A DNA stretch of 64,000 bases from positions 1,760,001 to 1,824,000 of the forward strand of contig OY760074.1 in the NCBI GenBank assembly GCA_963663035.1. The letters run 5' to 3'. Positions 50,414-64,000 of the stretch are shown here, piece after piece. A program made the position numbers and the translations under genes. Origin of the DNA: Acidobacteriota bacterium (lineage in GTDB: Bacteria; Acidobacteriota; UBA6911; RPQK01; JADFOI01). A model generated the notes under the pieces. That model saw nothing but the letters and a program-made list of their open reading frames with translations. It was not told the DNA's origin and ran no database searches. Every line of letters begins with the position of its first letter. Position 1 is the first letter of the stretch.

Positions 50414-50609
50414 TAGCTGGGATTATGCATAAATTGTCTACTGCAGTGCCGCAATCATCCACGCTGACTGCGTTGTACTTCCTTGGGCTCCTCGGCGCAC
50501 TGCATGAGTACGCCTGCGGGGCCCGACCCGCAAGCGGGTACCCCTGTCCGCCTTGTCATCGCAGCGCCTGCGGCACTTCGTCACGAAAACCTATGCATAA
50601 TACCAGCTA
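50414..50609. mobile_element. TA-flanked structured MITE-like element, copy A
   Basis: Ends tagctgggattatgcata / tatgcataataccagcta (17/18 IR); aligns end to end with 58900-59096. Confidence 0.75.
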
Positions 50610-51140: not shown

Positions 51141-52907
51141 CTATTCCGGCAAAGCAAAAACATAAATCGCATTGTGGCCCCGGGGAGGATGGATCTGGGG
51201 GACCATCCGCAGGGGACCGCTGGTACCCGAAGTTCCGTCTCCCGTCAGCACGGCGACGTATTGCCTTCCGTTGACCGAGTAGGTGATGGTGCTCATTTGA
51301 ATGACACCCCCAAGAATCGTTTCCCAAAGAATCTTCCCGCTTTCGGCATCCAAGGCTCGGAGCCTTCGATTCAGATCTCCCCAAAAAATCAGGTCTCCGG
51401 CTGTAGCCAGCACAGCACCATTCCCGGGAATAGGCGCTTCGTAGAATCGCTGGATCTGACCTGTAGCCATGTTCACCTTAGCGATCCCGGCCAAAGTGCT
51501 GGGGTCAGAGCCGGGACGAGCGACCGACGTTCGGAGGTGCCCGTTCAGACTCTGCAGATTGGCGGTTCTATCGGAGCAGACATCGAAGTAGGGGATGTAA
51601 AGAGAATTTTTGCCCGGATGGTAAGCCATGGGCCAGTAGCCCTTGGTATTGTGGTAGCAAATGAGGTGTCTTTCACCGTCCTCTCTCAAGATCTTCTCCC
51701 CGTCGATAAAAGTCTGACCGGTCTCCACGTCGATGTCGGAAATATGGAAGTCAGGGGTGTCGTAGGGGAAGGGTGAGGTCCACAGGAACTGGCCCTGGTC
51801 GCGGTCCAGCACCCATATCCCTCCAGGCTCTCCTACCGAAACCACGATGTCCCGCTCCTGTCCGCGAGGTATCTGGGGGTTGATCCATTTGACCTCCCCG
51901 GGATCAGGTTCAACGGCCGTTCGGAAAAGAATGCGTTCCTGGGTATGATCGGCGTCCCAGTCGTCCCCCGGTATGTGCTGGTAGTACCAGGCCAGCTTGC
52001 CGGTGTCGGGGTCCAGGGCCAGGGTCGAATTGGTGTAAAGCTCCGCTGGCGTTGACAGCGGAACGGCCTCCATGTTCTCACCATGACGTTTGATCCGAGT
52101 GTGCGGCTTGGGATTGGCGGTTCCCCAGAAAACCAGATTGCGCACCGGGTCGTAAGATCCCGGCAGTCCCCAGGGCGAGGTGATCCTTTTCTCCACGGGC
52201 AAACCGGCCCAGGTGTCACCCCCCGGCTCGTTCGGCCCGGGGGTAGTGAAAAACCGCCACAGTTCCTGACCCGTCCGCGCGTCATTGGCCACGATGAAGC
52301 AACGCTCGTTTGGACAGGACCGTCCCGTGATGACCTTCCCCTCCACGACTATGGGCCCTGAGGTGTGCTGCGTGCCGGTCGTGTAGTCCTGCACCCTGGC
52401 TTCCCAGCGCAGCTCGCCCGTCCGCGCGTCCAGGGCCACCACGTAGCCGTCCGGGGCAGAGTAGAAAATGAGGTCCTCATAGATGGCAACGGTGCGGGCC
52501 CGTCCAACGTTGTTAACAAAGTCGCTCAAGTCCTCCGGTAGTGTGCGCCGGTACTCCCAAAGCAGATCTCCGTTGGTGGCATCGAGAGCCTGAACGACGG
52601 CCGTGGGAACGACGAGGTACATGACCCCGCGGTACACGATAGGAATAATCTCCTGAACACCGGGCGCCATTCCCCGTACCCACTCCATTCGGAGGTGCTC
52701 CACATTTTGCCCGTTGATTTGATCGAGCGGACTGAAGCGTTGGTTGTCATAGGTTCGGCTGAACATCAGCCAGTCATCCGGGCTGGGGTTCAGGAGCATC
52801 TCTCGCGTCACCGGAGTAAAGTTCTCGACCTGCGCCAGGGCCTCAGTCGCGATCACTCCGAAAAGGATGGAAGTAATGGAAATCATGAAAACTAAAGTTC
52901 TCAACAT
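51141..52907 (-). CDS. PQQ-dependent dehydrogenase (periplasmic beta-propeller)
   Basis: Signal peptide; RFSPLDQIN, ALDA.TG..W repeats, WYYQH..DDWDAD, GRQYVAV. Confidence 0.9.
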   Translation of the reverse strand: MLRTLVFMISITSILFGVIATEALAQVENFTPVTREMLLNPSPDDWLMFSRTYDNQRFSPLDQINGQNVEHLRMEWVRGMAPGVQEIIPIVYRGVMYLVVPTAVVQALDATNGDLLWEYRRTLPEDLSDFVNNVGRARTVAIYEDLIFYSAPDGYVVALDARTGELRWEARVQDYTTGTQHTSGPIVVEGKVITGRSCPNERCFIVANDARTGQELWRFFTTPGPNEPGGDTWAGLPVEKRITSPWGLPGSYDPVRNLVFWGTANPKPHTRIKRHGENMEAVPLSTPAELYTNSTLALDPDTGKLAWYYQHIPGDDWDADHTQERILFRTAVEPDPGEVKWINPQIPRGQERDIVVSVGEPGGIWVLDRDQGQFLWTSPFPYDTPDFHISDIDVETGQTFIDGEKILREDGERHLICYHNTKGYWPMAYHPGKNSLYIPYFDVCSDRTANLQSLNGHLRTSVARPGSDPSTLAGIAKVNMATGQIQRFYEAPIPGNGAVLATAGDLIFWGDLNRRLRALDAESGKILWETILGGVIQMSTITYSVNGRQYVAVLTGDGTSGTSGPLRMVPQIHPPRGHNAIYVFALPE

Positions 52908-53084
52908 GCCTGCCCTCCACATGGGAACCAGGATAGCCGCCTTTGCGCAACAGGCCCACCCTGTACCACAAATCCGGCGACTCCGAATCCAGTTTTAACA
53001 TGGTGTTTTCTCAACCGGGTTTCACGCTCCGACACATTGTAAGACAGTCATACATTACCCGGCAAGCGACAGGGAAACCGAAGC

Positions 53085-53113
53085 TTGACGTAACCGCTTG
53101 GTACGTGTAGTCT
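53085..53113 (+). promoter_or_regulatory. sigma70-type promoter of the amidohydrolase array
   Basis: TTGACG-17 bp-TAGTCT. Confidence 0.55.
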
Positions 53114-53201: not shown

Positions 53202-55070
53202 ATGAAGAAGCACCACTTTTGGATGGCAGCTGCAGCCCTAGCAGCGAGCATCAGTTTCGGCTCTGCCCAGCAGGCTGCGGATACCATTTTGCACAACGGG
53301 AAGGTTCTGACCGTGGACGCGAATTTCAGCATTGCAGAGGCGGTGGCGGTTCGCGGCGACCAGATTCTGGCGGTGGGAACCAACAATGAGATTCTGCGGC
53401 TGGCCGGCCCCGACACGGTCAGGATTGACTTGAAGGGGAGAACGCTGACGCCGGGACTCGTCCATACCCACGTGCATCAGGAGTCCCCAGGGGGTTATGG
53501 CAGCGACCTGACCGCCGCGCAGCGCAAGCGATATCCTATAAACTTCAGACTGGTGAAGACCAAGGACGACGTCCTCAAACAGATCGAGGACATTATTGCG
53601 GCCTTCCCTTTCCAGCCGGGCGAGTGGATCCAGTTCTCCACCAATCCAAGGGGAGATCAGGCTCGGATGCTCTATGACGAGCTGGACCGGTGGGAACTAG
53701 ACAAGGCCGCTCCAGACAATCCGATTGCCTTGTCCATGGGAATACCGATCCTGAACATGGCGCTGGTCAACAGTAAGGCCATTGAAGCACTGTGGGACAG
53801 GTATGGCGACTTTGTTGAAACCTACGGGCGTTACTGGCTCGATTCCTCGGGCAGGCCCGATGGCCACCTGGAGCCTCCCGCCGTCCGCACCCTTGTTCAA
53901 GAGTTTATGCCGGAGCCCGACGTCGAACTCATGGCCCCGCTCTACAAGCAGGCTCTCCAGGAACGGGCAGCATTGGGTGTCACCACCATGTCAGGGGGTC
54001 TCCATGAATTCTCTGTGGACGTCTATCAATGGCTGGACGCCCGCGGTGAAATGCCACTGAGATATGGCTACGGTGTAGCCTGGACGTTTGGGATGCCCGG
54101 CGTGGACATGAAGCAGTATGAAATGGGCGGCGGCACCGATACGGTCTGGATCACTTCGATGAGTCCCCGGGCGATTGACGGGGCGGGCTCCAGAATGTGC
54201 ATTTCGCTCGACAGAGACTCCGACGCAGTGACCGCTGCTGCGGGAGAAGTCAGTGGGATGATGGGACTCTCTGCCATCTCCGAGTGGTGGCCGCGAGGGC
54301 AATGCCACATGGATATCGAGTACAGTGGAGGTTCCCGGGGAGCGAGTCTGAAGGGCAACTATTACCCCGAGTGGTTCAACGAGGTTGCCCAGGACGGTCT
54401 GCGCTCCGCCAATAATCACGTGTCTGGGGATGAGTCCCACTCCCGCTATATTTCGACGCTGGAAAGTATCGACCGGGCCAATCCGGGAGCGGTCAAAGGC
54501 TGGGGCCTGGATCATTGTAATATGATCAATCCCCAGGACATTCCCCGCGCAGCAAAGCTCGGACTGATGTGGAGCTGCAACATGGTAGACGCCATCATGA
54601 CGTCCATAGCCGATGCCTTTGGCGAGCAAGTGCTGCACAACTATGCAGTACCGATCAAGTCGATGCTTGATGCCGGCATTAACGTCTCCCAGGAGGGTCA
54701 GTGGGAAGGCATAGAAACCCTGGTCACGCGAAAAGACGTCAACGGCAAGGTCTGGGGAGCCCATGAACGGGTGGATCGGGAGACCGCCCTGAGGATCTCC
54801 ACCCAGAACGGGGCCAATTATGTTCTGAAAGGGGACAAGCTTGGCTCCATCGAGCCGGGAAAGCTGGCCGACCTGGTGGTCATCGATCGCGATTACCTGT
54901 CGATGCCCGAGGACGATTTTTCTGAAATCCAATCCCTGCTGACCATGCTGGGGGGTAAATTCATTTTCGTGCACACCGATTTTGCCGACGAGCAAAACCT
55001 GAGGCCAGCCGGCGCGCTCATCAGCACCTTGGAGGGTTTGCAGAGCCGCCGACCGGCGAGGACCTTCTAG
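53202..55070 (+). CDS. secreted amidohydrolase (Amidohydro_3, YtcJ/NfdA-like), paralogue 1
   Basis: Signal peptide; IDLKGRTLTPG..THVH; GSIEPGKLADLVVID. Confidence 0.9.
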   Translation: MKKHHFWMAAAALAASISFGSAQQAADTILHNGKVLTVDANFSIAEAVAVRGDQILAVGTNNEILRLAGPDTVRIDLKGRTLTPGLVHTHVHQESPGGYGSDLTAAQRKRYPINFRLVKTKDDVLKQIEDIIAAFPFQPGEWIQFSTNPRGDQARMLYDELDRWELDKAAPDNPIALSMGIPILNMALVNSKAIEALWDRYGDFVETYGRYWLDSSGRPDGHLEPPAVRTLVQEFMPEPDVELMAPLYKQALQERAALGVTTMSGGLHEFSVDVYQWLDARGEMPLRYGYGVAWTFGMPGVDMKQYEMGGGTDTVWITSMSPRAIDGAGSRMCISLDRDSDAVTAAAGEVSGMMGLSAISEWWPRGQCHMDIEYSGGSRGASLKGNYYPEWFNEVAQDGLRSANNHVSGDESHSRYISTLESIDRANPGAVKGWGLDHCNMINPQDIPRAAKLGLMWSCNMVDAIMTSIADAFGEQVLHNYAVPIKSMLDAGINVSQEGQWEGIETLVTRKDVNGKVWGAHERVDRETALRISTQNGANYVLKGDKLGSIEPGKLADLVVIDRDYLSMPEDDFSEIQSLLTMLGGKFIFVHTDFADEQNLRPAGALISTLEGLQSRRPARTF

Positions 55071-55104
55071 GGGTATGGGAATAACGAGGTTTGAAGGGAT
55101 CACC

Positions 55105-56973
55105 ATGAAGAAGCACCAGTTTTGGATGGCAACTGCAGCCCTGGCAGCGAGCATCAGTTTCGGCTCTGCGCAACAGGCTGCAGACACGATTTTGCACAAC
55201 GGGAAGGTTTTGACCGTGGACGCGAATTTCAGCATTGCCGAGGCGGTGGCGGTTCGCGGCACCGAGATTCTGGCGGTGGGAACCAACAATGAGATTCTGC
55301 GGCTGGCCGGTCCCGACACGGTCAGGATTGACTTGAAGGGGAGAACGTTGACGCCGGGGCTCATCAATACCCACGTGCATCAAGAATCTCCTGGGGGTTA
55401 TGGCACTGACCTGACCGCACCGCAGCGCGCCCAGTATCCTTTGAACTTCAGAACCGTCAAAACCAAAGACGACGTCCTCAAGCAGATCGAGGACATTATT
55501 GCGGCCTTCCAGATCCCGCCGGGCGAGTGGATTAATTTCTCCACCAATCCGAGGGGAGATCAGGCCAGGATTCTCTATGACGACCTGGACCGGTGGGAAC
55601 TGGACAAGGCCGCTCCAGACAATCCTATTGGTTTGTCCATGGGAATACCGATCCTGAACATGGCGCTGGTCAACAGCTTGGCCATTGAAGCGCTGTGGGA
55701 CAAGTATGGCGACTTCGTTGAGACCTACGGCCGCTACTGGGTGGATGCCTCCGGCCGTCCCGACGGTCACCTGGAGCCTCCCGCCGTGCGCACCCTTGTT
55801 CAAACGTTTATGCCGGAGCCCGACGTCGAACTCATGGCCCCGCTCTACAAGAAGGCTCTCGAGGAACGGGCAGCCTTGGGTGTGACCACCATGTCGGGAG
55901 GTCTTCATGAATTCTCCGTGGATGTCTATCAATGGCTGGACGCCCGCGGTGAAATGCCGCTGAGATATGGCTACGGTGTAGCCTGGACGTTTGGGATGCC
56001 AGGTATGGACATGAAGCAGTACGAAATGGGCGGCGGCAGCGACACGGTGTGGATCACTTCGATGAGTCCCCGGGCGATTGACGGGGCGGGTTCCAGAATG
56101 TGCATTTCGCTCGACAGGGACTCCGACGCTGTGACTGCTGCTGCGGGGGAAGTCAGTGGGATGATGGGACTCTCTGCCATCTCCGAGTGGTGGCCGCGCG
56201 GCCAATGCCATATGGACATCGAGTACGGTGGAGGAACCCGAGGGGCGAGTCTGAAGGGCAACTATTACCCCGAGTGGTTTGCCGAGGTTGCCCGGGACGG
56301 TCTGCGCTCCGCCAATAATCACGTGGATGGGGATGAGTCCCACGCCCGCTATATTTCGACGCTGGAACGTATCGACCAAGCCAATCCGGGATCGGTCAAA
56401 GGATGGGCCATGGACCATTGTAATATGATCAGGCCCGAGGACATTCCACGCGCTGCAAAGCTCGGACTGATGTGGAGTTGCAACATGGATAGAGCTGTCT
56501 CGACGCCCGTGGCCGCGGCCTTTGGCGATGAAATACTGCACACCTATGCTGCACCCATCAAGTCCATGCTGGAGGCCGGCGTTAACGTCTCCCAGGAGGG
56601 GCAGTGGGACGGAATCGAACACATGATCACGCGAAAGGACGAAGATGGCAAGGTCTGGGGAGCCCATGAACGGGTGGACCGGGAGACCGCCTTGAGAGTC
56701 TCCACCCAGAACGGGGCCAATTATGTTCTGAAAGGGGACCAACTTGGCTCCATCGAGCCGGGCAAACTGGCCGACCTGGTGGTCATCGACCGCGATTACC
56801 TGTCGATGCCCGAGGATGATTTTTCTGAAATCCAATCCCTGCTGACCATGTTGGGGGGCAAATTCATTTTCGTGCACACCGATTTTGCAGACGAGCAAAA
56901 CCTGAGGCCAGCCGGCGCGCTCATCAGCACATTGGAGGGTTTGCAGAGCCGCAGACCGGCGAGGAACTTTTAG
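55105..56973 (+). CDS. secreted amidohydrolase, paralogue 2
   Basis: Same motifs; start at MKKHQF by alignment with siblings. Confidence 0.9.
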   Translation: MKKHQFWMATAALAASISFGSAQQAADTILHNGKVLTVDANFSIAEAVAVRGTEILAVGTNNEILRLAGPDTVRIDLKGRTLTPGLINTHVHQESPGGYGTDLTAPQRAQYPLNFRTVKTKDDVLKQIEDIIAAFQIPPGEWINFSTNPRGDQARILYDDLDRWELDKAAPDNPIGLSMGIPILNMALVNSLAIEALWDKYGDFVETYGRYWVDASGRPDGHLEPPAVRTLVQTFMPEPDVELMAPLYKKALEERAALGVTTMSGGLHEFSVDVYQWLDARGEMPLRYGYGVAWTFGMPGMDMKQYEMGGGSDTVWITSMSPRAIDGAGSRMCISLDRDSDAVTAAAGEVSGMMGLSAISEWWPRGQCHMDIEYGGGTRGASLKGNYYPEWFAEVARDGLRSANNHVDGDESHARYISTLERIDQANPGSVKGWAMDHCNMIRPEDIPRAAKLGLMWSCNMDRAVSTPVAAAFGDEILHTYAAPIKSMLEAGVNVSQEGQWDGIEHMITRKDEDGKVWGAHERVDRETALRVSTQNGANYVLKGDQLGSIEPGKLADLVVIDRDYLSMPEDDFSEIQSLLTMLGGKFIFVHTDFADEQNLRPAGALISTLEGLQSRRPARNF

Positions 56974-57033
56974 AGCTATGGGATTATGAGGTTTGAAAGT
57001 TAAGGGGCACTTCAACGACCGGGAGGGATCACC

Positions 57034-58902
57034 ATGAAGAAGCACCAGTTTTGGATGGCAGTTGCAGCCATTGCAGCGAGTATCAGTTTCGGCTCTGCCC
57101 AGCAGGCTGCGGACACGATTTTACACAACGGGAAGGTTCTGACCGTTGACGCGGATTTCAGCATTGCGGAAGCGGTGGCGGTTCGCGGCGACCAGATTCT
57201 GGCGGTGGGAACCAACAATGAGATTCTGCGTCTGGCCGGCCCCGATACGGTCAGCATCGACTTGAAGGGGAAAACGGTGACGCCGGGAATCATCCATACC
57301 CACGTGCATCAGGAATCCCCTGGGGGTTATGGCAGCAACCTGACCGCCGCGCAGCACAAGCGATATCCTTTGAACTTTAGAACCGTCAGAACCAAGGACG
57401 ACATCCTCAAGCAGATCGAAGACATCATTGCGGCCTTCGACTTCGAGCCGGGCGAGTGGATCTCTTTCACCACCAACCCGACGGGGGATCAGGCCAGGAT
57501 CCTCTATGACGACCTGAACCGGTGGGAACTGGACAAGGCCGCTCCGGACAATCCGATCACCGTGTCCCTGGGAGTACCGATCCTGAACATGCTGCTGGTC
57601 AACGGTAAGGCTATCGATGCGCTGTGGGACAGGTATGGCGACTTTGTTGAAACCTACGGGCGCTACTGGGTCGACGACCGCGGCCGTCCCGACGGTCATC
57701 TGGAGCCGCCGGCCGTCCGTGCTCTGGTTCAAACGTTTGTGCAGGAGCCCGAGGTCGAGCTCATGGCCCCGCTCTACAAAAAGACTCTCGAGGAGCGGTC
57801 AGCAATCGGTATCACGACCCTTTCTGGGGGTCTCCATGAATTCTCAGTGGATGTCTATAAATGGCTCGACGCCCGCGGTGAAATGCCGCTGAGATACGGC
57901 TACGGTGTAGCCTGGACGTTCGGAATGCCAGGCGTGGACATGACGGAGTACGAAATGGGAGGCGGCACCGACACGCTCTGGATCACTTCGATGAGTCCCC
58001 GAGGGATTGACGGGGCGGGCTCCAGAATGTGCATTTCGCTGGACAGAGACTCCGACGCAGTGACCACCGCCGGGGGAGGAGTCAGTGGAATGATGGGACT
58101 CTCTGCCATCTCCGAATGGTGGCCGCGCGGGCAGTGCCACATGGACATCGAGTACAAAGGAGGTGCTCGGGGGGCAAGCATCAGGCGCAACTACTTCCCG
58201 GAGTGGTACACCGAGGTAGCCCGGGGCGGTCAGCGCGCCGCCAATACTCACATGTCTGGGGATGAGTCCCACACCCGCTATATTTCGGCGCTGGAACGTC
58301 TCGACCGGGCCAATCCGGGAGCGGTCAAAGGCTGGGCCATGGACCATTGCAGTATGATCAAGCCCCTCGACATTCCACGCGCGGCAAGGCTCGGACTGAT
58401 GTGGAGCTGCAACATGGCCAGCGCTATCTCGACGCCCCTGGCCGCGGCCTTTGGCGATGAAGTGCTGCACACCTATGCTGCACCCATCAAGTCCATGCTG
58501 GATGCCGGCGTTAACGTCTCCCAGGAGGGGGCGTGGGACGGTATGGAAACCATGATCACGCGCAAGGACGATGAAGGCAAGGTCTGGGGACCCGATGAAC
58601 GGGTGGACCGGGAAACCGCCTTGAGAGTCTCCACCCAGAACGGGGCCAATTATGTCCTGAAAGGCGACAAGCTTGGCTCCATCGAGCCGGGAAAGCTGGC
58701 CGACCTGGTGGTCATCGACAGCGACTACCTGACGATGCCCGAGGAAGATATTTCTGAAGTCCAATCCCTGCTGACCCTGTTGGGGGGCAGATTCATCTTC
58801 GTGCGCTCCGATTTTGCCGACGAGCACAACCTGAGACCGGCCGGCGCGCTCATTAGCACCTTGGAAGATTTGCAGAGCCGCCGCCCGGCCAACAACTTTT
58901 AG
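57034..58902 (+). CDS. secreted amidohydrolase, paralogue 3
   Basis: Same motifs, 622 aa. Confidence 0.9.
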   Translation: MKKHQFWMAVAAIAASISFGSAQQAADTILHNGKVLTVDADFSIAEAVAVRGDQILAVGTNNEILRLAGPDTVSIDLKGKTVTPGIIHTHVHQESPGGYGSNLTAAQHKRYPLNFRTVRTKDDILKQIEDIIAAFDFEPGEWISFTTNPTGDQARILYDDLNRWELDKAAPDNPITVSLGVPILNMLLVNGKAIDALWDRYGDFVETYGRYWVDDRGRPDGHLEPPAVRALVQTFVQEPEVELMAPLYKKTLEERSAIGITTLSGGLHEFSVDVYKWLDARGEMPLRYGYGVAWTFGMPGVDMTEYEMGGGTDTLWITSMSPRGIDGAGSRMCISLDRDSDAVTTAGGGVSGMMGLSAISEWWPRGQCHMDIEYKGGARGASIRRNYFPEWYTEVARGGQRAANTHMSGDESHTRYISALERLDRANPGAVKGWAMDHCSMIKPLDIPRAARLGLMWSCNMASAISTPLAAAFGDEVLHTYAAPIKSMLDAGVNVSQEGAWDGMETMITRKDDEGKVWGPDERVDRETALRVSTQNGANYVLKGDKLGSIEPGKLADLVVIDSDYLTMPEEDISEVQSLLTLLGGRFIFVRSDFADEHNLRPAGALISTLEDLQSRRPANNF

Positions 58903-59096
58903 CCCGCATTATGCATAAATTTTCTGCTACAGTGGCGCAATCATCCGCGCTGACGGCGTTGTCCTTCCTTGCGCTCCTCGGCGTACTGCACGAGTACGCC
59001 TGCGGGACGCGACCCGCAAGCGGGTACCCCTCACACGCCTTGTCATCGCGGCGCTTGCGCCACTTCGCTACGAAAACCTATGCATAGTGCGGGCTA
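58900..59096. mobile_element. TA-flanked structured MITE-like element, copy B
   Basis: Ends tagcccgcattatgcata / tatgcatagtgcgggcta (17/18 IR); sits at the stop codon of paralogue 3 and is absent from the sibling spacers. Confidence 0.8.
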
Positions 59097-59125
59097 GGGC
59101 ACTTCAACAACAAGGAGCAATCACC

Positions 59126-61006
59126 ATGAAGAAGCACCAGTTTTGGATGGCAGCTGCAGCCCTAGCGGCGAGCATCAGTTTCGGCTCTGCCCAGCAGGCT
59201 GCGGACACGATTTTGCACAACGGTAAGGTTCTGACCGTGGACGCGAATTTCAGCATTGCAGAGGCGGTGGCGGTTCGCGGCGACCAGATTCTGGCGGTGG
59301 GAACCAACAATGAGATTCTGCGGCTGGCCGGCCCCGACACGGTCAGGATTGACTTGAAGGGGAGAACGCTGACGCCGGGACTCGTCCATACCCACGTGCA
59401 TCAGGAGTCCCCAGGGGGTTATGGCAGCGACCTGACCGCCGCGCAGCGCAAGCGATATCCTATAAACTTCAGACTGGTGAAGACCAAGGACGACGTCCTC
59501 AAACAGATCGAGGACATTATTGCGGCCTTCCCTTTCCAGCCGGGCGAGTGGATCCAGTTCTCCACCAATCCAAGGGGAGATCAGGCTCGGATGCTCTATG
59601 ACGAGCTGGACCGGTGGGAACTAGACAAGGCCGCTCCAGACAATCCGATTGCCTTGTCCATGGGAATACCGATCCTGAACATGGCGCTGGTCAACAGTAA
59701 GGCCATTGAAGCACTGTGGGACAGGTATGGCGACTTTGTTGAAACCTACGGGCGTTACTGGCTCGATTCCTCGGGCAGGCCCGATGGCCATCTGGAGCCT
59801 CCCGCCGTCCGTACCCTTATTCAAGAGTTTATGCCGAAGCCCGACGTCGAACTCATGGCCCCGCTCTACAAGAAGACTCTCCAGGAACGGGCAGCAGTGG
59901 GTGTGACCACCATGTCGGGGGGGCTCCATAAATTCTCTGTGGATGTCTATAAATGGCTCGATGCCCGCGGTGAAATGCCGCTGAGATATGGCTACGGTGT
60001 AGCCTGGACGTTTGGGATGCCAGGCATGGACATGAAGCAGTACGAAATGGGCGGAGGTAGCGACACGGTCTGGATCACTTCGATGAGTCCCCGGGCAATT
60101 GACGGGTCGGGCTCCAGAATGTGCGTTTCGATCGAGAGAGACTCCCAGGCAGTGACCGATGTTGCGGGAGAAGTCAGTGGAATGATGGGACTCTCTGCCA
60201 TCTCCGAGTGGTGGCCGCGCGGCCAATGCCACATGGATATTGAGTACAGTGGAGGGACCCGGGGGGCCAGCCTGAAGGGCAACTATTACCCCGAGTGGTT
60301 CGGCGAGGTTGCCGCACAAGGTCTGCGCTCAGCCAACAATCACACCTCCGGGGATGAGTCCCACTCCCGCTATATTTCGACGCTGGAAAGTATCGACCGG
60401 GAGAATCCGGGAGCAGTCAAAGGCTGGGCCATGGACCACTGTGATCTGATCAGGCCCGAGGACCTTCCACGCGCGGCAAAGCTCGGAATAATGTTCAGCT
60501 GCGACATCAGGTTCGGCGTCTCGGAGGGCTTCTCCGATGCCAAGGCCGCGGCCTTTGGCGAGGAGGTGGTACACAACTATGCGGTACCGATCAAGTCGAT
60601 GCTCGACCTGGGCATTAACGTCTCTCAGGAGGGACAGTGGGACGGTGTGGAACTCATGATCACGCGCAAGGACGGACAGGGCAAGGTCTGGGGACCCGAT
60701 CAACGAGTAGACCGCGAGACTGCCCTGAGGATCTCCACCCAGAACGGAGCCAATTATGTCCTGAAAGGCGACAAGCTTGGCTCCATCGAGCCGGGCAAGC
60801 TGGCCGACCTGGTGGTCATCGACAGCGATTACCTGTCGATGCCCGAGGACGATATCGCTGACATTCAATCCCTACTGACCCTGTTGGGGGGCAAATTCAT
60901 CTTCGTGCGCTCCGATTTTGCCGACGAGCAAAACCTGAGGCCAGCCGGCGCGCTCATCAGCACCTTGGAGGATTTGCAGAAGCGACGCCCGGCGAGAAAC
61001 TTTTAA
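59126..61006 (+). CDS. secreted amidohydrolase, paralogue 4
   Basis: Same motifs; 4-aa insertion near GVSEGFSDAK. Confidence 0.9.
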   Translation: MKKHQFWMAAAALAASISFGSAQQAADTILHNGKVLTVDANFSIAEAVAVRGDQILAVGTNNEILRLAGPDTVRIDLKGRTLTPGLVHTHVHQESPGGYGSDLTAAQRKRYPINFRLVKTKDDVLKQIEDIIAAFPFQPGEWIQFSTNPRGDQARMLYDELDRWELDKAAPDNPIALSMGIPILNMALVNSKAIEALWDRYGDFVETYGRYWLDSSGRPDGHLEPPAVRTLIQEFMPKPDVELMAPLYKKTLQERAAVGVTTMSGGLHKFSVDVYKWLDARGEMPLRYGYGVAWTFGMPGMDMKQYEMGGGSDTVWITSMSPRAIDGSGSRMCVSIERDSQAVTDVAGEVSGMMGLSAISEWWPRGQCHMDIEYSGGTRGASLKGNYYPEWFGEVAAQGLRSANNHTSGDESHSRYISTLESIDRENPGAVKGWAMDHCDLIRPEDLPRAAKLGIMFSCDIRFGVSEGFSDAKAAAFGEEVVHNYAVPIKSMLDLGINVSQEGQWDGVELMITRKDGQGKVWGPDQRVDRETALRISTQNGANYVLKGDKLGSIEPGKLADLVVIDSDYLSMPEDDIADIQSLLTLLGGKFIFVRSDFADEQNLRPAGALISTLEDLQKRRPARNF

Positions 61007-61068
61007 CGTTTGGAAGTCTATAACCACAGCCCTCTGACGGGCACCGAAGAAAACAGGGAGAGATTACC

Positions 61069-62937
61069 ATGAAGAAGCACCAGTTTTGGATGGCGGCTGC
61101 AGCCATAGCAGCGAGCATCAGTTTCGGCTCTGCCCAGCAGCCTGCCGACACGATTTTTCACAACGGCAAGGTTTTGACCGTGGACGCGAATTTCAGCGTT
61201 GCCGAAGCGGTGGCAGTTCGCGGCGACCAGATTCTGGCGGTGGGAACCAACACTGAGATTCTGCGGCTGGCCGGCCCCGACACGGTCAGGATTGACTTGA
61301 AGGGAAGAACGCTGACGCCGGGGCTCATCCATACCCACGTCCATCAGGAATCCCCCGGGGGTTACGGCAGCGACCTGACCGCCGCGCAGCACGCGCGATA
61401 TCCTTTGAACTTCAGAACTGTCACAACCAAAGACGACGTCCTCAAACAGATTGCGGACATTATTTCGGCCTTCCAGATCCCGCCGGGCGAGTGGATTAAC
61501 TTCTCCACCAACCCGAGAGGAGATCAGGCCAGGATGCTCTATGACGAGCTGGACCGGTGGGAGCTGGACAAGGTCTCTCCAGACAATCCTATTGGTTTGT
61601 CCATGGGAATACCGATCCTGAACATGGCGCTGGTCAACAGCTTGGCCATTGAAGCGCTGTGGGACAAGTATGGCGACTTCGTTGAGACCTACGGGCGCTA
61701 CTGGCTTGATTCCTCCGGCCGACCCGACGGTCATCTGGAGCCACCGGCCGTCCGCACCCTTGTTCAAGAGTTTATGCCGGAGCCCGATGTCGAACTCATG
61801 GCCCCACTCTATAAGTTGGCTCTCCAGGAACGGGCAGCCTTGGGTGTCACCACCATGTCGGGGGGTCTTCATAAATTCTCTGTGGATGTCTATCAATGGC
61901 TCGACGCCCGCGGTGAAATGCCGCTGAGATATGGCTACGGTGTAGCTTGGACGTTTGGGATGCCAGGCGCGGACATGACTCAGTACGAAATGGGCGGCGG
62001 CACCGACACCGTCTGGATCACTTCGATGAGTCCACGGGCGGTTGACGGATCGGGTTCCAGAATGTGCATTTCGCTTGACAGAAACTCCGACGCAGTGACC
62101 GCTGCTGCGGGAGAAGTCAGTGGGATGATGGGACTCTCTGCCATCTCCGAGTGGTGGCCGCGCGGCCAATGCCACATGGACATCGAGTACAGTGGAGGTT
62201 CCCGGGGAGCAAGTCTGAAGGGCAACTACTTCCCGGAGTGGTACAACGAGGTCGCCCGGGACGGTCTGCGCACCGCCAATACTCACATGTCTGGAGATGA
62301 GTCCCACACACGCTATCTTTCAGCGATGGAACGAATCGACCAGGCCAATCCGGGATCGGTCAAAGGCTGGGGCATGGACCATTGTGATTTGATCAGGCCC
62401 GATGACATCCCACGAGCGGCAAAACTCGGACTGATGTGGAGTTGCGACCTTGGAGACGCCGTCTCGACGCCTGTGGCCGCGGCCTTTGGCGATCAAGTGC
62501 TGCACACCTATGCCGTACCGATCAAGTCGATGCTGGATGCCGGCATTAACGTCTCCCAGGAGGGGGAGTGGAACGGTATTGAACTCATGATCACGCGCAA
62601 GGACAGAGACGGCAAGGTTTGGGGGCCCGATCAACGGTTGGACCGGGAGACCGCCCTGAGAGTCTCCACCCAGAACGGGGCCAATTATGTCCTGAAAGGC
62701 GACAAGCTCGGCTCCATCGAGCCCGGCAAACTGGCCGACCTGGTGGTCATCGACAGCGATTTCCTGTCGATGCCGGAAGAGGATATTTCTGAAATCGAAT
62801 CCCTGCTGACCCTGTTGGGAGGCAAATTCATTTTCGTGCACTCCGATTTTGCCGACGAACAGAACTTGAGGCCAGCCGGCGCGCTCATCAGCACGTTGGA
62901 GGGCTTGCAGAGCCGACGCCCGGCGAGAGGCTTCTAG
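61069..62937 (+). CDS. secreted amidohydrolase, paralogue 5
   Basis: Same motifs, 622 aa. Confidence 0.9.
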   Translation: MKKHQFWMAAAAIAASISFGSAQQPADTIFHNGKVLTVDANFSVAEAVAVRGDQILAVGTNTEILRLAGPDTVRIDLKGRTLTPGLIHTHVHQESPGGYGSDLTAAQHARYPLNFRTVTTKDDVLKQIADIISAFQIPPGEWINFSTNPRGDQARMLYDELDRWELDKVSPDNPIGLSMGIPILNMALVNSLAIEALWDKYGDFVETYGRYWLDSSGRPDGHLEPPAVRTLVQEFMPEPDVELMAPLYKLALQERAALGVTTMSGGLHKFSVDVYQWLDARGEMPLRYGYGVAWTFGMPGADMTQYEMGGGTDTVWITSMSPRAVDGSGSRMCISLDRNSDAVTAAAGEVSGMMGLSAISEWWPRGQCHMDIEYSGGSRGASLKGNYFPEWYNEVARDGLRTANTHMSGDESHTRYLSAMERIDQANPGSVKGWGMDHCDLIRPDDIPRAAKLGLMWSCDLGDAVSTPVAAAFGDQVLHTYAVPIKSMLDAGINVSQEGEWNGIELMITRKDRDGKVWGPDQRLDRETALRVSTQNGANYVLKGDKLGSIEPGKLADLVVIDSDFLSMPEEDISEIESLLTLLGGKFIFVHSDFADEQNLRPAGALISTLEGLQSRRPARGF

Positions 62938-62970
62938 GAAGGGGCATTTCAACAACAAGGAGCAATCACC

Positions 62971-64000
62971 ATGAAGAAGCACCAGTTCTGGATGGCAGCT
63001 GCAGCCATAGCAGCGAGCATCAGTTTCGGCTCTGCCCAGCAGACTGCGGATACCATTTTTCACAACGGCAAGGTTCTGACCGTTGACGAAAATTCCAGCG
63101 TTGCCGAGGCGGTGGCGGTTCGCGGCACCCAAATACTGGCGGTGGGAACCAACAATGAGGTTCTCCGCCTGGCCGGCCCCGACACGGTCAGGATTGACTT
63201 GAAGGGGAGAACGGTGACGCCGGGGCTGATCCATACCCACGTGCATTCGGAATCACCCGGGGGTTATGGCGGTGACCTGTCTGCCGCGCAGCTCAAGCGA
63301 TTTCCGGTGAACTTCAGAGACGTCACAACCAAGGACGACGTCATCAAGCAGATGAAGGACATTATTGCGGCCTTCCAGATCAAGCCGGGCGAGTGGGTCG
63401 CCTTCACCGGCAATCCGCGGGGAGATCAGGCTAGACTGCTCTGGGACGACCTGAACCGGTGGGAACTGGACAAGGCCGCTCCAGACAATCCGATCTCTCT
63501 GTCGGGGGGTATTCCCGTCGTAAACATGATGCTGCTCAACAGTAAGGCCCTGGACCAGCTGTGGGCCAAGTATGGAGACTTCATTGAAACCTACGGGCGT
63601 TACTGGATCGACGCCTCCGGCCGTCCCGATGGCCACCTGGAGGCTCCGGCCGTCCGTATCCTTCTGGAGGATGATGACTTTGTGCCGAATGCCGCGCCCC
63701 AGGACGTGGGTCCACTCTTCAAGAATGTTCTAGAGGAACGGTCAGCAGCGGGTATCACGACCATTTCAGGGGGCCTACACACCTCCAGCGTCCGGGTCTA
63801 TCAATGGCTCGACGCCCGAGGCGAAATGCCGCTGAGATATGCCTACGGTGTCATGTCGACATTTGGATTCCCAGACAGAGACAACAAGCAGTTCAAAATG
63901 GGCGCCGGCACCGACATGGTGTGGATCAGTTCGATGAGTGCGCGGGCGGTCGACGGGGCGGGCTCCAGAATGTGCATTTCGATCGAGAGAGACTCCCAGG
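62971..64000 (+). CDS. secreted amidohydrolase, paralogue 6 (partial, runs off the window; not in the ORF track)
   Basis: atgaagaagcaccagttctgg at 62971 after RBS aaggag; open to the edge; most divergent copy (HSESPGG, LLEDDDFVPNAAP). Confidence 0.88.
   Translation, partial: MKKHQFWMAAAAIAASISFGSAQQTADTIFHNGKVLTVDENSSVAEAVAVRGTQILAVGTNNEVLRLAGPDTVRIDLKGRTVTPGLIHTHVHSESPGGYGGDLSAAQLKRFPVNFRDVTTKDDVIKQMKDIIAAFQIKPGEWVAFTGNPRGDQARLLWDDLNRWELDKAAPDNPISLSGGIPVVNMMLLNSKALDQLWAKYGDFIETYGRYWIDASGRPDGHLEAPAVRILLEDDDFVPNAAPQDVGPLFKNVLEERSAAGITTISGGLHTSSVRVYQWLDARGEMPLRYAYGVMSTFGFPDRDNKQFKMGAGTDMVWISSMSARAVDGAGSRMCISIERDSQ

Follow-up and report, generated by a model that had tools for sequence, protein, structure and literature searches.

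The window considered here is the whole stretch of DNA that was analysed, 64,000 nt of an Acidobacteriota genome, and it ends inside a head-to-tail array of genes for putatively exported amidohydrolases. The six array genes, all on the + strand, are given the working names c1 to c6, and their coordinates refer to the window. The first, c1 (53202..55070; PF07969, E 1.2e-42), encodes a putatively exported Amidohydro_3 paralogue of 622 aa. It is followed by c2 (55105..56973; 622 aa), c3 (57034..58902; 622 aa), which is the furthest diverged of a young clade of copies, c4 (59126..61006; 626 aa), c5 (61069..62937; 622 aa) and c6, an older paralogue of 626 aa that starts at 62971, reaches the end of the window at 64000 and continues to window-equivalent position 64851. 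The rest of c6 was taken from the genome contig (G000:C1:1822971-1824851), its final 851 nt lying beyond the window. The genes c1, c3 and c5 are ORFs as called, while the starts of c2 and c4 were set at MKKH because of homology with the other copies (their longest ORFs begin at 55075 and 59087, respectively). A preliminary description of this DNA proposed a tandem array of at least six paralogues with intact copies and near-identical signal peptides, and suggested following it past the window end to count them. From the ORF calls and the genome contig, there are exactly six such ORFs between 53202 and 64851, all with intact reading frames, and the near identity of the signal peptides holds among the six. 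The downstream neighbours are a 192-aa ORF and then RmuC; the array and the 192-aa gene make up a seven-gene, same-strand cluster.

The intergenic spacers from c1 to c6 measure 34, 60, 223, 62 and 33 nt, so that the short spacers of the preliminary description apply to four of them (33-62 nt) but not to the one between c3 and c4 (58903..59125, + strand). The first ~195 nt of this spacer belong to a high-copy repeat (227 blastn HSPs across the genome) that has terminal inverted repeats and folds as a single long hairpin (-100.9 kcal/mol, z -6.5), and the last ~30 nt of the spacer are, according to a leader comparison, the common leader with a ribosome-binding site. Each copy carries its own start codon and ribosome-binding leader. 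A scan of the 14-kb locus against Rfam gave no family match, the repeat included. The single evident sigma70-type promoter that had been reported does not stand. A sigma-70 consensus scan of the region, the only promoter class it covers, returned three sites, all on the - strand (5.1 were expected from shuffles), and none on the + strand, in the spacers or elsewhere. What can be found by eye is a weak sigma-70-like candidate, TTGACG-17 nt-TAGTCT (53085..53113, + strand), 89 nt upstream of c1, which fails the consensus scan.

Tandem repeats are hard to assemble, and the short-read contigs across this array are fragmentary, both of which would agree with a mis-assembled repeat that contains fewer real copies. 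Against such an artefact, whose probability we regard as negligible, the copies differ from each other by 8-22 % in DNA, and one DNA-type run covers 30 of 30 bins at 97 % or more. Furthermore, copy-specific counterparts with 94.6-100 % identity are found in other assemblies. A second assembly of 3.44 Mb contains counterparts of c2 (an identical protein), c3 and c4, and a contig with a length of 66,200 nt is given as the source of those of c2-c6, the one of c5 being 99.0 % identical. The c3 counterpart P0005, in another assembly, is 99.8 % identical, and those of c4 in other assemblies reach 97.4-99.0 %. Since every copy has its own counterpart elsewhere, the array is real and stable, and each copy has been retained as a distinct gene across related strains. 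Near-identical DNA was also found in a run labelled as a marine sediment metagenome. In addition, metatranscriptome contigs from one study (97-100 % identity) cover each of the six copies and the small gene in part, and one of these contigs spans the junction between c6 and the small gene; some bins have no RNA-library contig, and this coverage is not proof of transcription.

The classification of the products as amidohydrolases is borne out by profile and structural comparisons. Full copies match PF07969 (Amidohydro_3) with E values of 1e-42 to 2e-37, with a match of 147.4 bits against a cut-off of 29.7 over profile positions 3-472 of 472; c4 scores 130.1 bits, and the fragment of c6 within the window 56.8 bits. 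The AF2 model of c1 (pLDDT 89.2, pTM 0.89) is a (beta/alpha)8 barrel with a composite beta domain built from the N- and C-terminal parts, and its closest solved folds in Foldseek are the YtcJ-like structures 3IGH and 3ICJ (E 2e-25, TM 0.52-0.67), with TrzN, deaminases and further members of the superfamily ranking next. No NCBIfam equivalog was matched at its cut-off (best 63 bits against 391, partial and on terminal composite-domain segments), PDB sequence searches gave matches only to short terminal segments, and the clusters obtained from the ESM Atlas, all of them from Acidobacteriota, carry no more than the generic label "amidohydrolase family". The N-terminal sequence is MKKH-FWMAAAALAASISFGSA-QQ, and a crude hydropathy test detects an N-terminal hydrophobic segment in 60 of the 61 full-length paralogues of this genome, whereas an internal region used as control gives 8 of 61.

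In an alignment of 66 sequences, the invariant residues of c1 are H90, H92, H438, D437, E498, S496, C333, C368 and C459, and H406 is nearly so. The HxH at the end of strand 1 (H90 and H92, in six of six copies) aligns to the HxH of 3GGM and 3ICJ, H406 occupies the strand-5 position, and the strand-6 H438 aligns to the His of the "IEH" of 3ICJ; these conserved putative metal-site residues are present in all six copies. By contrast with the canonical site, the same alignment contains no invariant or near-invariant Lys at residues 260-400 that could be the carbamylated Lys of strand 4, and the Lys of this genome's canonical paralogues aligns to Ser321. The strand-8 Asp of 3ICJ aligns to Ser496, with Glu498 two residues further on, while an alternative alignment, to 7WW2, puts its Asp at the variable residue 500. 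Judged from these alignments, the metal site appears to be non-canonical, with HxH, H406 and H438 kept, the strand-4 Lys absent, and Ser496/Glu498 at the strand-8 Asp position. As the canonical Lys and Asp are missing, catalytic competence is something that we infer.

The loss of these two residues of the canonical binuclear site could also mean that the proteins are pseudoenzymes, that is, binding or structural subunits that assemble with the neighbouring cohesin-like protein instead of acting as hydrolases. The low confidence with which a highly conserved motif region (about residues 349-376) is modelled would be compatible with that proposal. Nevertheless, the three His elements just described are invariant or nearly so in the 66 sequences, an invariant Glu lies two residues past the Asp position, and mononuclear amidohydrolase subtypes work without the strand-4 Lys, all of which makes this alternative improbable.

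The copies c1-c5 share 81-90 % amino-acid identity and form a single clade that takes up 11 of the 70 rows of the tree (SH-aLRT 100), while c6 is 70-72.5 % identical to the others and groups in a separate clade with P0013, P0012 and P0010. The array is thus a recent tandem duplication (c1-c5) next to an older paralogue (c6). Its members swap segments by gene conversion, from which part of the patchwork of differences comes. A tract of 566 nt in c1 (53301..53866, + strand) is identical to c4 59225-59790, with a probability of about 8e-23 given the 157 differences in the pair, and a tract of 118 nt in c2 (55613..55730, + strand) is identical to c5 61577-61694 (P about 8.5e-4). The first 120 nt of c6 are also unusually similar to the other copies, with 9-11 differences where about 25 are expected in four of the five pairs (P 5e-5 to 4e-4); the pair with c2 shows 16 differences against 26 expected (P 0.013).

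Mosaic identity blocks between copies, the mosaic variants P0001 and P0002 in other samples, and the predicted export of the products are features that a cassette system for surface variation would also present, with silent copies donating segments to one expressed copy as in antigenic-variation loci. This is very improbable, because all copies are intact and equipped with their own start codons and ribosome-binding leaders, RNA-library contigs fall on all six, the copies are stable across strains, and conservation extends to the enzyme fold and the active-site residues.

The variation among the copies follows a defined pattern. The preliminary description had placed the differences in segments near a set of motifs, with a 4-aa insertion in copy 4. 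The motifs ESPGGYG, EWxxF, N-x-H-x-x-GDE, DHC, SC and SQEG are all present (SLEG in c6), the insertion occurs in c4 after the second SC, and the clustering is confirmed statistically. Among c1-c5, 174 of 629 columns vary in amino acid, and these are clustered (index of dispersion 1.27-1.61 vs 0.73, P<=0.0002 with 5000 permutations), whereas columns with only synonymous differences show no clustering (P 0.23-0.33). With strand boundaries taken from the predicted model and the motif positions, variable sites make up 29 of 60 positions in five post-strand loops compared with 141 of 562 elsewhere (P=3.5e-4), an excess that stems from the loops following strands 7 and 8. The strongest case is a hypervariable loop after barrel strand 7 (residues 460-476 of c1; 54579..54629, + strand), which lies in the same place in every copy, carries the insertion in c4, and was assigned by DSSP of the c1 model and profile alignment to 3ICJ. 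In this loop, c1-c5 differ at 12 of 16 residues (460-475), whereas 26 % of residues are variable elsewhere (P=8e-5), pN/pS is 1.28, and the minimum changes are 20 replacement to 2 silent, the remainder of the gene having 193:235 (P=2.5e-5). Replacement differences are therefore concentrated in the strand-7 and strand-8 loops. The earlier statement that several of the variable segments follow predicted barrel strands holds for these loops. One variable segment (residues 101-120 and 136) coincides in part with the surface that is predicted to dock the cohesin-like protein and so may not be a substrate-specificity loop.

Pairwise dN/dS values of 0.20-0.38, with dS among c1-c5 of 0.19-0.36, reveal that every copy is under purifying selection. 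Positive selection at the variable sites, a check also suggested in the preliminary description, was sought with window and minimum-change counts (recombination among the copies would bias site-wise codon models). In no window is dN/dS significantly above 1, and the replacement excess of the strand-7 loop does not differ significantly from neutrality (P=0.07-0.25). Moreover, the sites that vary in the array are mostly those that vary across the family (AUC 0.75), and only 8 of 192 family-conserved columns vary in the array, all of them conservatively. This coincidence is the pattern that relaxed constraint alone would give. It agrees with dosage amplification and concerted evolution, in which all copies do the same job and provide more enzyme, their differences being neutral drift at weakly constrained surface loops that conversion partly erases; the conversion tracts and the homogenised signal peptides and leaders point in the same direction. 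However, the dS values and the separate counterpart (95-100 %) of each copy elsewhere indicate that the copies have long been maintained separately, and the strand-7 loop combines its excess of replacements with an indel. Dosage amplification is consequently rather unlikely, although it deserves serious attention. Maintained, differentiated isozymes fit the copy-specific counterparts better than a transient amplification. The proposal of a repertoire diversified for related substrates is therefore sustained in part: purifying selection, the counterparts and the strand-7/8 enrichment favour it, while the lack of any dN/dS significantly above 1, the family-wide variability of the same sites and the conversion mosaic do not.

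The 192-aa gene that follows the array (window-equivalent 64851-65429, L012:12851-13429, + strand) is translationally coupled to c6, its ATG overlapping the c6 stop by 1 nt. The array's own protein has no match to Pfam Cohesin (PF00963) at E<=0.1, but 26 of 31 members of its family match at E<=0.01 (best 2.6e-6), and the score of one of its paralogues in this genome exceeds the Cohesin cut-off. The core of its AF2 model (residues about 45-180, pLDDT mostly 72-95) is a nine-stranded jelly-roll of the cohesin type, and the top Foldseek matches listed are cohesin or cohesin-like modules (best 5NRM_A, E 4e-6, TMt 0.67). Members of this small-protein family end in an invariant CFF(Y/F)MH motif, with the longer form PP-x-F-x-CFF(Y/F)MH, for which NCBIfam and Pfam gave no match. 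Eleven ORFs of the genome end in this motif, and 8 of the 11 have an amidohydrolase gene no more than 760 nt away, while only 5 % of the genome is within 600 nt of one. The adjacency occurs at least eight times across the genomes G004, G005, G006 and G015, and the presence of the cohesin-like gene agrees with that of c1-like amidohydrolases in 16 of 17 genomes. No cohesin-like gene adjoins three other c1-like paralogues, which are located at genome positions 832 k, 1090 k and 1843 k.

A complex between c6 and the cohesin-like protein is predicted with ipSAE values of 0.73, 0.69 and 0.69, compared with 0.00 for the best of three controls; of the solved complexes, 116 of 157 attain the mark used, as do 2 of 215 mismatched pairs, a calibration that is only rough for the alignments used. 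The runs agree in at least 67 % of contacts, with partner pLDDT of at least 85. The predicted partner surface is a helix and a loop of the amidohydrolase catalytic domain, and of the 20 residues predicted to form the interface, 14 do not vary among c1-c5. No dockerin (PF00404) was detected in the genome at E<=0.01, nor in the amidohydrolases. Outside subscription journals, nothing relevant was found among the publications listed on cohesins with amidohydrolases, or on non-cellulosomal cohesins or dockerins in Acidobacteria, those listed on the latter subject all dealing with cellulosomes or the gut.

The array is one of about ten in a lineage-specific expansion. The genome yields 68 matches to PF07969 in 67 ORFs, of which 61 are of at least 540 aa, so that this 3.6-Mb Acidobacteriota genome encodes 61 full-length paralogues, many of them in arrays. 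Genes similar to c1 are found in 13 of the 31 genomes searched, including tandem sets in G005 and G015; the named relative L009 has an 80 % homologue as a single copy in a different neighbourhood, which is thus uninformative about synteny. The TonB-dependent receptor gene nearest to the array is located 11 kb downstream, beside another paralogue. A literature search outside subscription journals found nothing relevant on amidohydrolase expansion, paralogues or YtcJ in Acidobacteria or Acidobacteriota, marine sediment included. The 61-paralogue expansion, the coupled cohesin-like gene with its CFF(Y/F)MH motif, the recurrence of this gene beside amidohydrolases and the predicted binding to c6 are reported here as new.

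Taken together, these data make it somewhat probable that the array encodes six exported YtcJ-like isozymes that differ in substrate preference and that it includes a docking cohesin-like protein, within a lineage-specific expansion. The Sec signal peptides would export the enzymes to the periplasm or the cell surface, where they would hydrolyse C-N (amide-type) bonds of related organic-nitrogen compounds, and the remodelled strand-7/8 loops would set the preference of each copy. The enzymes may dock onto the cohesin-like protein via the conserved helix ~127-136 and the adjacent segment 104-117, and the invariant tail of this protein may anchor or sort the complex. A broader proposal, which we hold only tentatively, is that of a dockerin-independent cohesin system, in which small exported cohesin-fold proteins would capture exported YtcJ-like amidohydrolases directly through a conserved helix of the catalytic domain, as isozyme batteries at the surface or in the periplasm (an "amidohydrolosome") with which these Acidobacteriota would harvest many amide-linked nitrogen compounds. 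The six-gene array would then supply interchangeable catalytic units to one docking protein, and the PP-x-F-x-CFF(Y/F)MH tail might be a new sorting or anchoring signal.

About 3 % of the 3.6-Mb genome (61 genes of roughly 1.9 kb each) is devoted to putatively exported enzymes from a single, uncharacterised branch of this superfamily of amidohydrolases, a trait common to related genomes, and the scale of this investment suggests a major, undescribed route for organic-nitrogen processing in these bacteria. The young array is a natural experiment in enzyme diversification: its paralogues share 81-90 % identity, and their differences lie mainly in two loops of the active-site face, so that a few chimeras could map the specificity determinants. 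If the cohesin-like neighbour does bind the enzymes, cohesin-based tethering would extend beyond dockerins and polysaccharide degradation, and a new conserved C-terminal motif would be defined.

The closest structural relatives, the solved but uncharacterised YtcJ-like proteins 3IGH and 3ICJ from Pyrococcus, share the barrel-plus-composite-domain fold and the HxH and strand-5 and strand-6 His. However, the array proteins are only 17-18 % identical to them, have no conserved Lys at strand 4, exhibit Ser496-x-Glu498 where 3ICJ has the strand-8 Asp, and add a predicted Sec signal peptide and the extra conserved WWPRGQCxxDIEY region. Among characterised enzymes, BwBSH1/2 from Bilophila wadsworthia are described as secreted, metal-dependent bile salt hydrolases of PF07969, with Sec signal peptides, that cleave amides outside the cytoplasm, with two or three paralogous genes in tandem or colocalised (BwBSH1 and BwBSH2 are about 51 % identical; bioRxiv 10.64898/2026.04.05.716592). 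Compared with that published description, the array shares tandem PF07969 paralogues, with putative Sec signal peptides, but its proteins are of 622-626 aa, have no such Lys, and are encoded six in a row beside a cohesin-like gene, whereas the BwBSHs are reported to have 945 aa, an extra C-terminal domain, five metal ligands and a carboxylated Lys, and to be encoded beside a type II secretion system (bioRxiv 10.64898/2026.04.05.716592). With such tandem secreted enzymes published, and with 61 full-length paralogues in this genome, the statement that the repertoire is unusual for a metabolic enzyme was too strong.

The likeness to the cohesin-dockerin tethering of cellulosomes lies in a cohesin-fold module whose gene accompanies a battery of genes for putatively secreted hydrolases, one of which the module is predicted to bind. 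In contrast to cellulosomes, no dockerin is detected in the enzymes or the genome, the predicted docking involves the catalytic domain's own helix and loop, and a single small module with a CFF(Y/F)MH tail takes the place of a multi-cohesin scaffoldin. Finally, remodelling of loops 7 and 8 sets specificity in enzymes of the amidohydrolase superfamily, such as phosphotriesterase and its lactonase relatives. In the array, the young copies diverge most in the strand-7 loop, which also holds their only indel, and next in the strand-8 loop, and it is by this analogy that both loops may be linked to substrate specificity.

The array consists of six head-to-tail genes for probably exported amidohydrolases of the Amidohydro_3 family (PF07969, YtcJ-like), hereafter c1 to c6, all on the + strand of a single 3.59-Mb contig, of which the window covers positions 1760001-1824000. 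Four of them, c1 (53202-55070), c2 (55105-56973), c3 (57034-58902) and c5 (61069-62937), encode proteins of 622 aa, while c4 (59126-61006) and c6 (62971-64851, completed from the genome beyond the window) encode proteins of 626 aa. The preliminary description had counted six or more copies; extension past the window fixes the number at exactly six, all of them intact, with the array stopping at c6. The motifs that it had listed and the 4-aa insertion in c4 have all been found in the copies. As for the sigma-70 promoter that it had also described, a consensus scan returned no site on the + strand, and by eye only a weak TTGACG-17-TAGTCT is seen at 53085-53113. Amino acid identity is 81-90 % within c1-c5 and 70-72.5 % between c6 and the rest (DNA identity, 86-92 % and ~78 %). 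From c1 to c6, the spacers measure 34, 60, 223, 62 and 33 nt, and a leader with a ribosome-binding site right before the ATG is common to most of them. One DNA-type run covers, at ≥97 % identity, 30 of the 30 bins of the locus, and the array is real.

The spacer between c3 and c4 (58903-59125) is filled by a ~195-nt repeat with terminal inverted repeats, of which further copies lie at ~50422-50599 and at the window-equivalent positions ~65440-65640. With 227 blastn HSPs genome-wide and a fold into a single long hairpin (-100.9 kcal/mol, z -6.5), this repeat resembles a MITE- or REP-like element. No Rfam family was matched in the 14-kb locus, two copies of the repeat included, and the depth of the DNA run rises to 565 in the bin of the c3/c4-spacer copy.

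Pfam Amidohydro_3 is matched by each copy tested, namely c1 (147 bits against a cut-off of 29.7), c4 and the in-window part of c6, and none of the NCBIfam equivalogs comes near its cut-off for the array proteins. The solved folds closest to the AF2 model of c1 (alignment of 66 homologues, pLDDT 89.2) are the YtcJ-like 3IGH and 3ICJ (E 2e-25, 17-18 % identity, TM 0.52-0.67), themselves uncharacterised, followed by TrzN, deaminases and other members of the superfamily. In the 66 sequences, H90, H92, H406, D437, H438, S496 and E498 are invariant or nearly so, as are C333, C368, C459 and a WWPRGQCxxDIEY stretch. Contrary to canonical members, these sequences hold no conserved Lys at the position aligned with the carbamylated Lys of strand 4, and at the strand-8 Asp of 3ICJ the alignment places Ser496, followed two residues on by Glu498. 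The absence of the Lys, together with the alignment of Ser496 to the Asp, indicates that the metal site is non-canonical, and from these alignments we infer a metal centre that would be mononuclear or otherwise bridged. Among the most conserved parts of the family is SEWWPRGQC-x-MDIEY (c1 residues ~349-376, 54246-54329, with an equivalent place in every copy), which contains the conserved W362, P364, G366, Q367, C368, D371 and E373. Despite this conservation, its pLDDT in the AF2 model is just 42-56; the stretch may act as a flap that depends on metal or substrate, or may form a disulfide-linked element together with C333.

The array belongs to a much larger expansion. The PF07969 profile matches 68 places in the genome, corresponding to 67 ORFs, 61 of them of at least 540 aa. 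An N-terminal hydrophobic segment is present in 60 of these 61 full-length paralogues, versus 8/61 in an internal control region, and most of their N-termini are signal-peptide-like. There are about ten tandem sets genome-wide, and many paralogues lie in groups of two to four copies whose N-termini are near-identical (examples in this genome are the regions 180058-186177, 1111306-1119431, 1364955-1373828, 3186357-3191729 and 3434412-3439796). Only about ten paralogues keep both the canonical Lys of strand 4 and the Asp of strand 8, and the remaining ones form several subfamilies with non-canonical motifs, the c1 type being one of them. The closest relatives with a name are Acidobacteriota MAGs. 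Genes similar to c1 (E≤1e-60) have been found in 13 of the 31 related genomes searched; the 13 represent three of the four same-family genera sampled plus one genome of a second family, and tandem sets are seen in two of them (G005 and G015).

The flanks of the array are unrelated. Upstream, they encode a divergent, exported PQQ-dependent dehydrogenase with a beta-propeller (51141-52922, - strand, 279 nt from c1), followed by Ogt and an acyl-CoA dehydrogenase; downstream, they encode RmuC and MurJ. Paralogues recur 10-25 kb downstream, where three of them lie together with a TonB-dependent receptor, a tannase-family esterase and a further hydrolase. This second hydrolase-rich stretch (window-equivalent 73473-89952; loci L010:9473-20000 and L011) contains an Amidohydro_3 gene and then the receptor (CarboxypepD_reg, Plug and barrel), and continues with a polysaccharide-deacetylase-like gene, another pair of Amidohydro_3 genes (of which one shares 68 % identity with c1), the tannase/feruloyl-esterase-family gene and an alpha/beta hydrolase.

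All six array proteins were retrieved from public assemblies by exact look-up. A quick ML tree with 70 rows (the six copies, four other paralogues of the genome and the homologous public proteins P0001-P0060) groups c1-c5 and their near-identical counterparts in one 11-row clade (SH-aLRT 100) and places c6 in a separate clade with P0013, P0012 and P0010. Cluster members from a 66,200-nt contig are 97.4, 97.6, 97.4, 99.0 and 94.6 % identical to c2, c3, c4, c5 and c6, respectively, versus just 69-88 % to the non-matching copies, and a second assembly of 3.44 Mb holds c2 (100 %), c3 (99.8 %) and c4 (98.9 %). These copy-specific counterparts show that the duplications are older than the divergence of the strains and that each copy has been kept as itself. 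Gene conversion between copies has been demonstrated, with identical tracts of 566 nt in c1/c4 (P ~8e-23) and 118 nt in c2/c5 (P ~8.5e-4), and the first 120 nt of c6 are far closer to the other copies than its remainder. At the protein level, c1 and c4 show no difference over residues 34-221. P0001 and P0002, from a 2,965-nt public contig, are intermediate mosaics with 88-91 % identity to each of c1-c5 and no single best partner, a pattern suggesting that array copies are still recombining in natural populations.

Pairwise dN/dS values of 0.20-0.38 (dS within c1-c5, 0.19-0.36) indicate that every copy is under purifying selection. The differences among copies had been said to cluster, and they do: 174 of the 629 columns are variable in amino acid among c1-c5, with a dispersion of 1.27-1.61 vs 0.73 (P≤0.0002), and the 170 columns with only synonymous changes show no clustering. 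Several of them had also been proposed to follow barrel strands. With strands located by DSSP of the AF2 model and by the catalytic motifs, the five post-strand loops are enriched (29/60 variable vs 141/562 elsewhere, P=3.5e-4), driven by those after strand 7 (12/16, P=8e-5) and strand 8 (residues 499-514; 8/16, P=0.05), and no significant enrichment is seen after strands 1, 5 and 6; the segments originally named are variable at 43/83 positions vs 127/539 elsewhere, a test which is circular. For the most part, the clustering reflects constraint across the family: family entropy is higher at array-variable sites (1.75 vs 0.98 bits, AUC 0.75), and only 8 of the 192 columns conserved in at least 90 % of the family vary in the array, all conservatively. 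In the strand-7 loop (residues 460-476), pN/pS is 1.28 and the minimum changes are 20 replacement to 2 silent, against 193 to 235 in the remaining gene (Fisher P=2.5e-5, with the window selected post hoc). Since the excess over neutrality in this loop is not significant (P=0.07-0.25), diversifying selection on the copies is possible, not demonstrated. The idea of a diversified enzyme repertoire is favoured by the clustering and by the enrichment after strands 7 and 8, while the dN/dS values not significantly above neutral and the family-like distribution of sites speak against it; the same two observations fit the main alternative, dosage amplification with neutral drift of the loops, which we regard as less likely.

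Directly after c6, a gene on the + strand (window-equivalent 64851-65429), whose first base coincides with the final one of the c6 stop codon, encodes a 192-aa protein with a signal-peptide-like N-terminus. The protein itself has no Pfam match and no meaningful NCBIfam match, but Pfam Cohesin is matched at E≤0.01 by 26 of the 31 aligned family members, which comprise this protein and 30 homologues, and the core of its AF2 model is a beta sandwich whose top listed Foldseek matches are cohesins or cohesin-like modules. A C-terminal PP/SP-x-F-x-CFF(Y/F)(M/L)H is present in 29 of the 31; one more ends in CLFYMH and one is truncated. In the source genome, 11 ORFs end in a CFF(Y/F)MH-type motif, all of them short (2-240 aa as called, including a broken remnant). 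For eight of these ORFs an Amidohydro_3 gene lies within 760 nt, and for seven it lies within 220 nt, with just 5 % of the genome lying within 600 nt of such a gene. The family occurs in 11 of 17 relatives; in 16 of these 17 genomes its presence agrees with whether c1-like amidohydrolases occur, and in at least eight further cases (G004, G005, G006 and G015) an amidohydrolase gene is followed on the same strand, after 7-250 nt, by the small gene. In two other genomes (G007:C10:14892-15335 and G010:C276:330-776), a cohesin-like module with the same C-terminal end is found in open frames of 560-565 aa, so the partner may also occur in longer forms, possibly as fusions. No dockerin was found in the genome.

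The complex predicted for c6 (residues 25-626) and the small protein (30-192) reaches ipSAE values of 0.73, 0.69 and 0.69, versus 0.00 for the best of three controls; of the solved complexes, 116 out of 157 attain the mark used, as do 2 out of 215 mismatched pairs, a calibration that is only rough here because custom alignments were used. The runs share at least 67 % of contacts, with a partner pLDDT of at least 85. The predicted interface comprises residues 104-117, 127-136, 150-152 and 623-624 of the enzyme and 42-44, 53-57, 84-94, 127-135 and 183-185 of the partner, among them G42, F43, D44, L89, S90, A91, Q92, A93, P127, S128 and G129, which are invariant or nearly so across the partner's family; GLSAQA and IPSG are motifs of the partner. 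Since c1-c5 do not vary at 14 of the 20 enzyme residues, docking to the small protein could be common to all six copies. Part of the variable segment described after ESPGGYG falls in this predicted surface. Regarding expression, metatranscriptome contigs (two runs of one study, 97-100 % identity) match parts of each of c1-c6 and the small gene, one of them spanning the c6/small-gene junction, which suggests transcription of the locus, although DNA can contaminate such libraries; near-identical pieces also appear in a run labelled as marine sediment metagenome.

The most likely reading, to which we give somewhat better than even chances, is a set of exported isozymes that hydrolyse amide bonds, are distinguished by their strand-7/8 loops and dock to the cohesin-like protein. 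The boldest reading that the evidence allows, put forward only tentatively, is a cohesin-enzyme system that works without dockerins and bears a new signal at the C-terminus. According to a 2026 preprint (bioRxiv 10.64898/2026.04.05.716592), characterised PF07969 members include imidazolonepropionase, cytosine and pterin deaminases, aminoacylases, FhcA, NfdA, AtzC and PhnM, as well as the secreted metal-dependent bile salt hydrolases of Bilophila, with two or three colocalised paralogues. Among published systems, the latter come closest to an array of tandem secreted Amidohydro_3 isozymes, but, unlike the array proteins, they are larger and keep the canonical Lys. A literature search on a cohesin-like partner of amidohydrolases found nothing in print. 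Four features are new here: how far the family has expanded within a genome of 3.6 Mb, the recent origin and mosaic make-up of c1-c5, the non-canonical metal site and, most of all, the cohesin-like partner, which recurs beside the enzymes and has a conserved tail.
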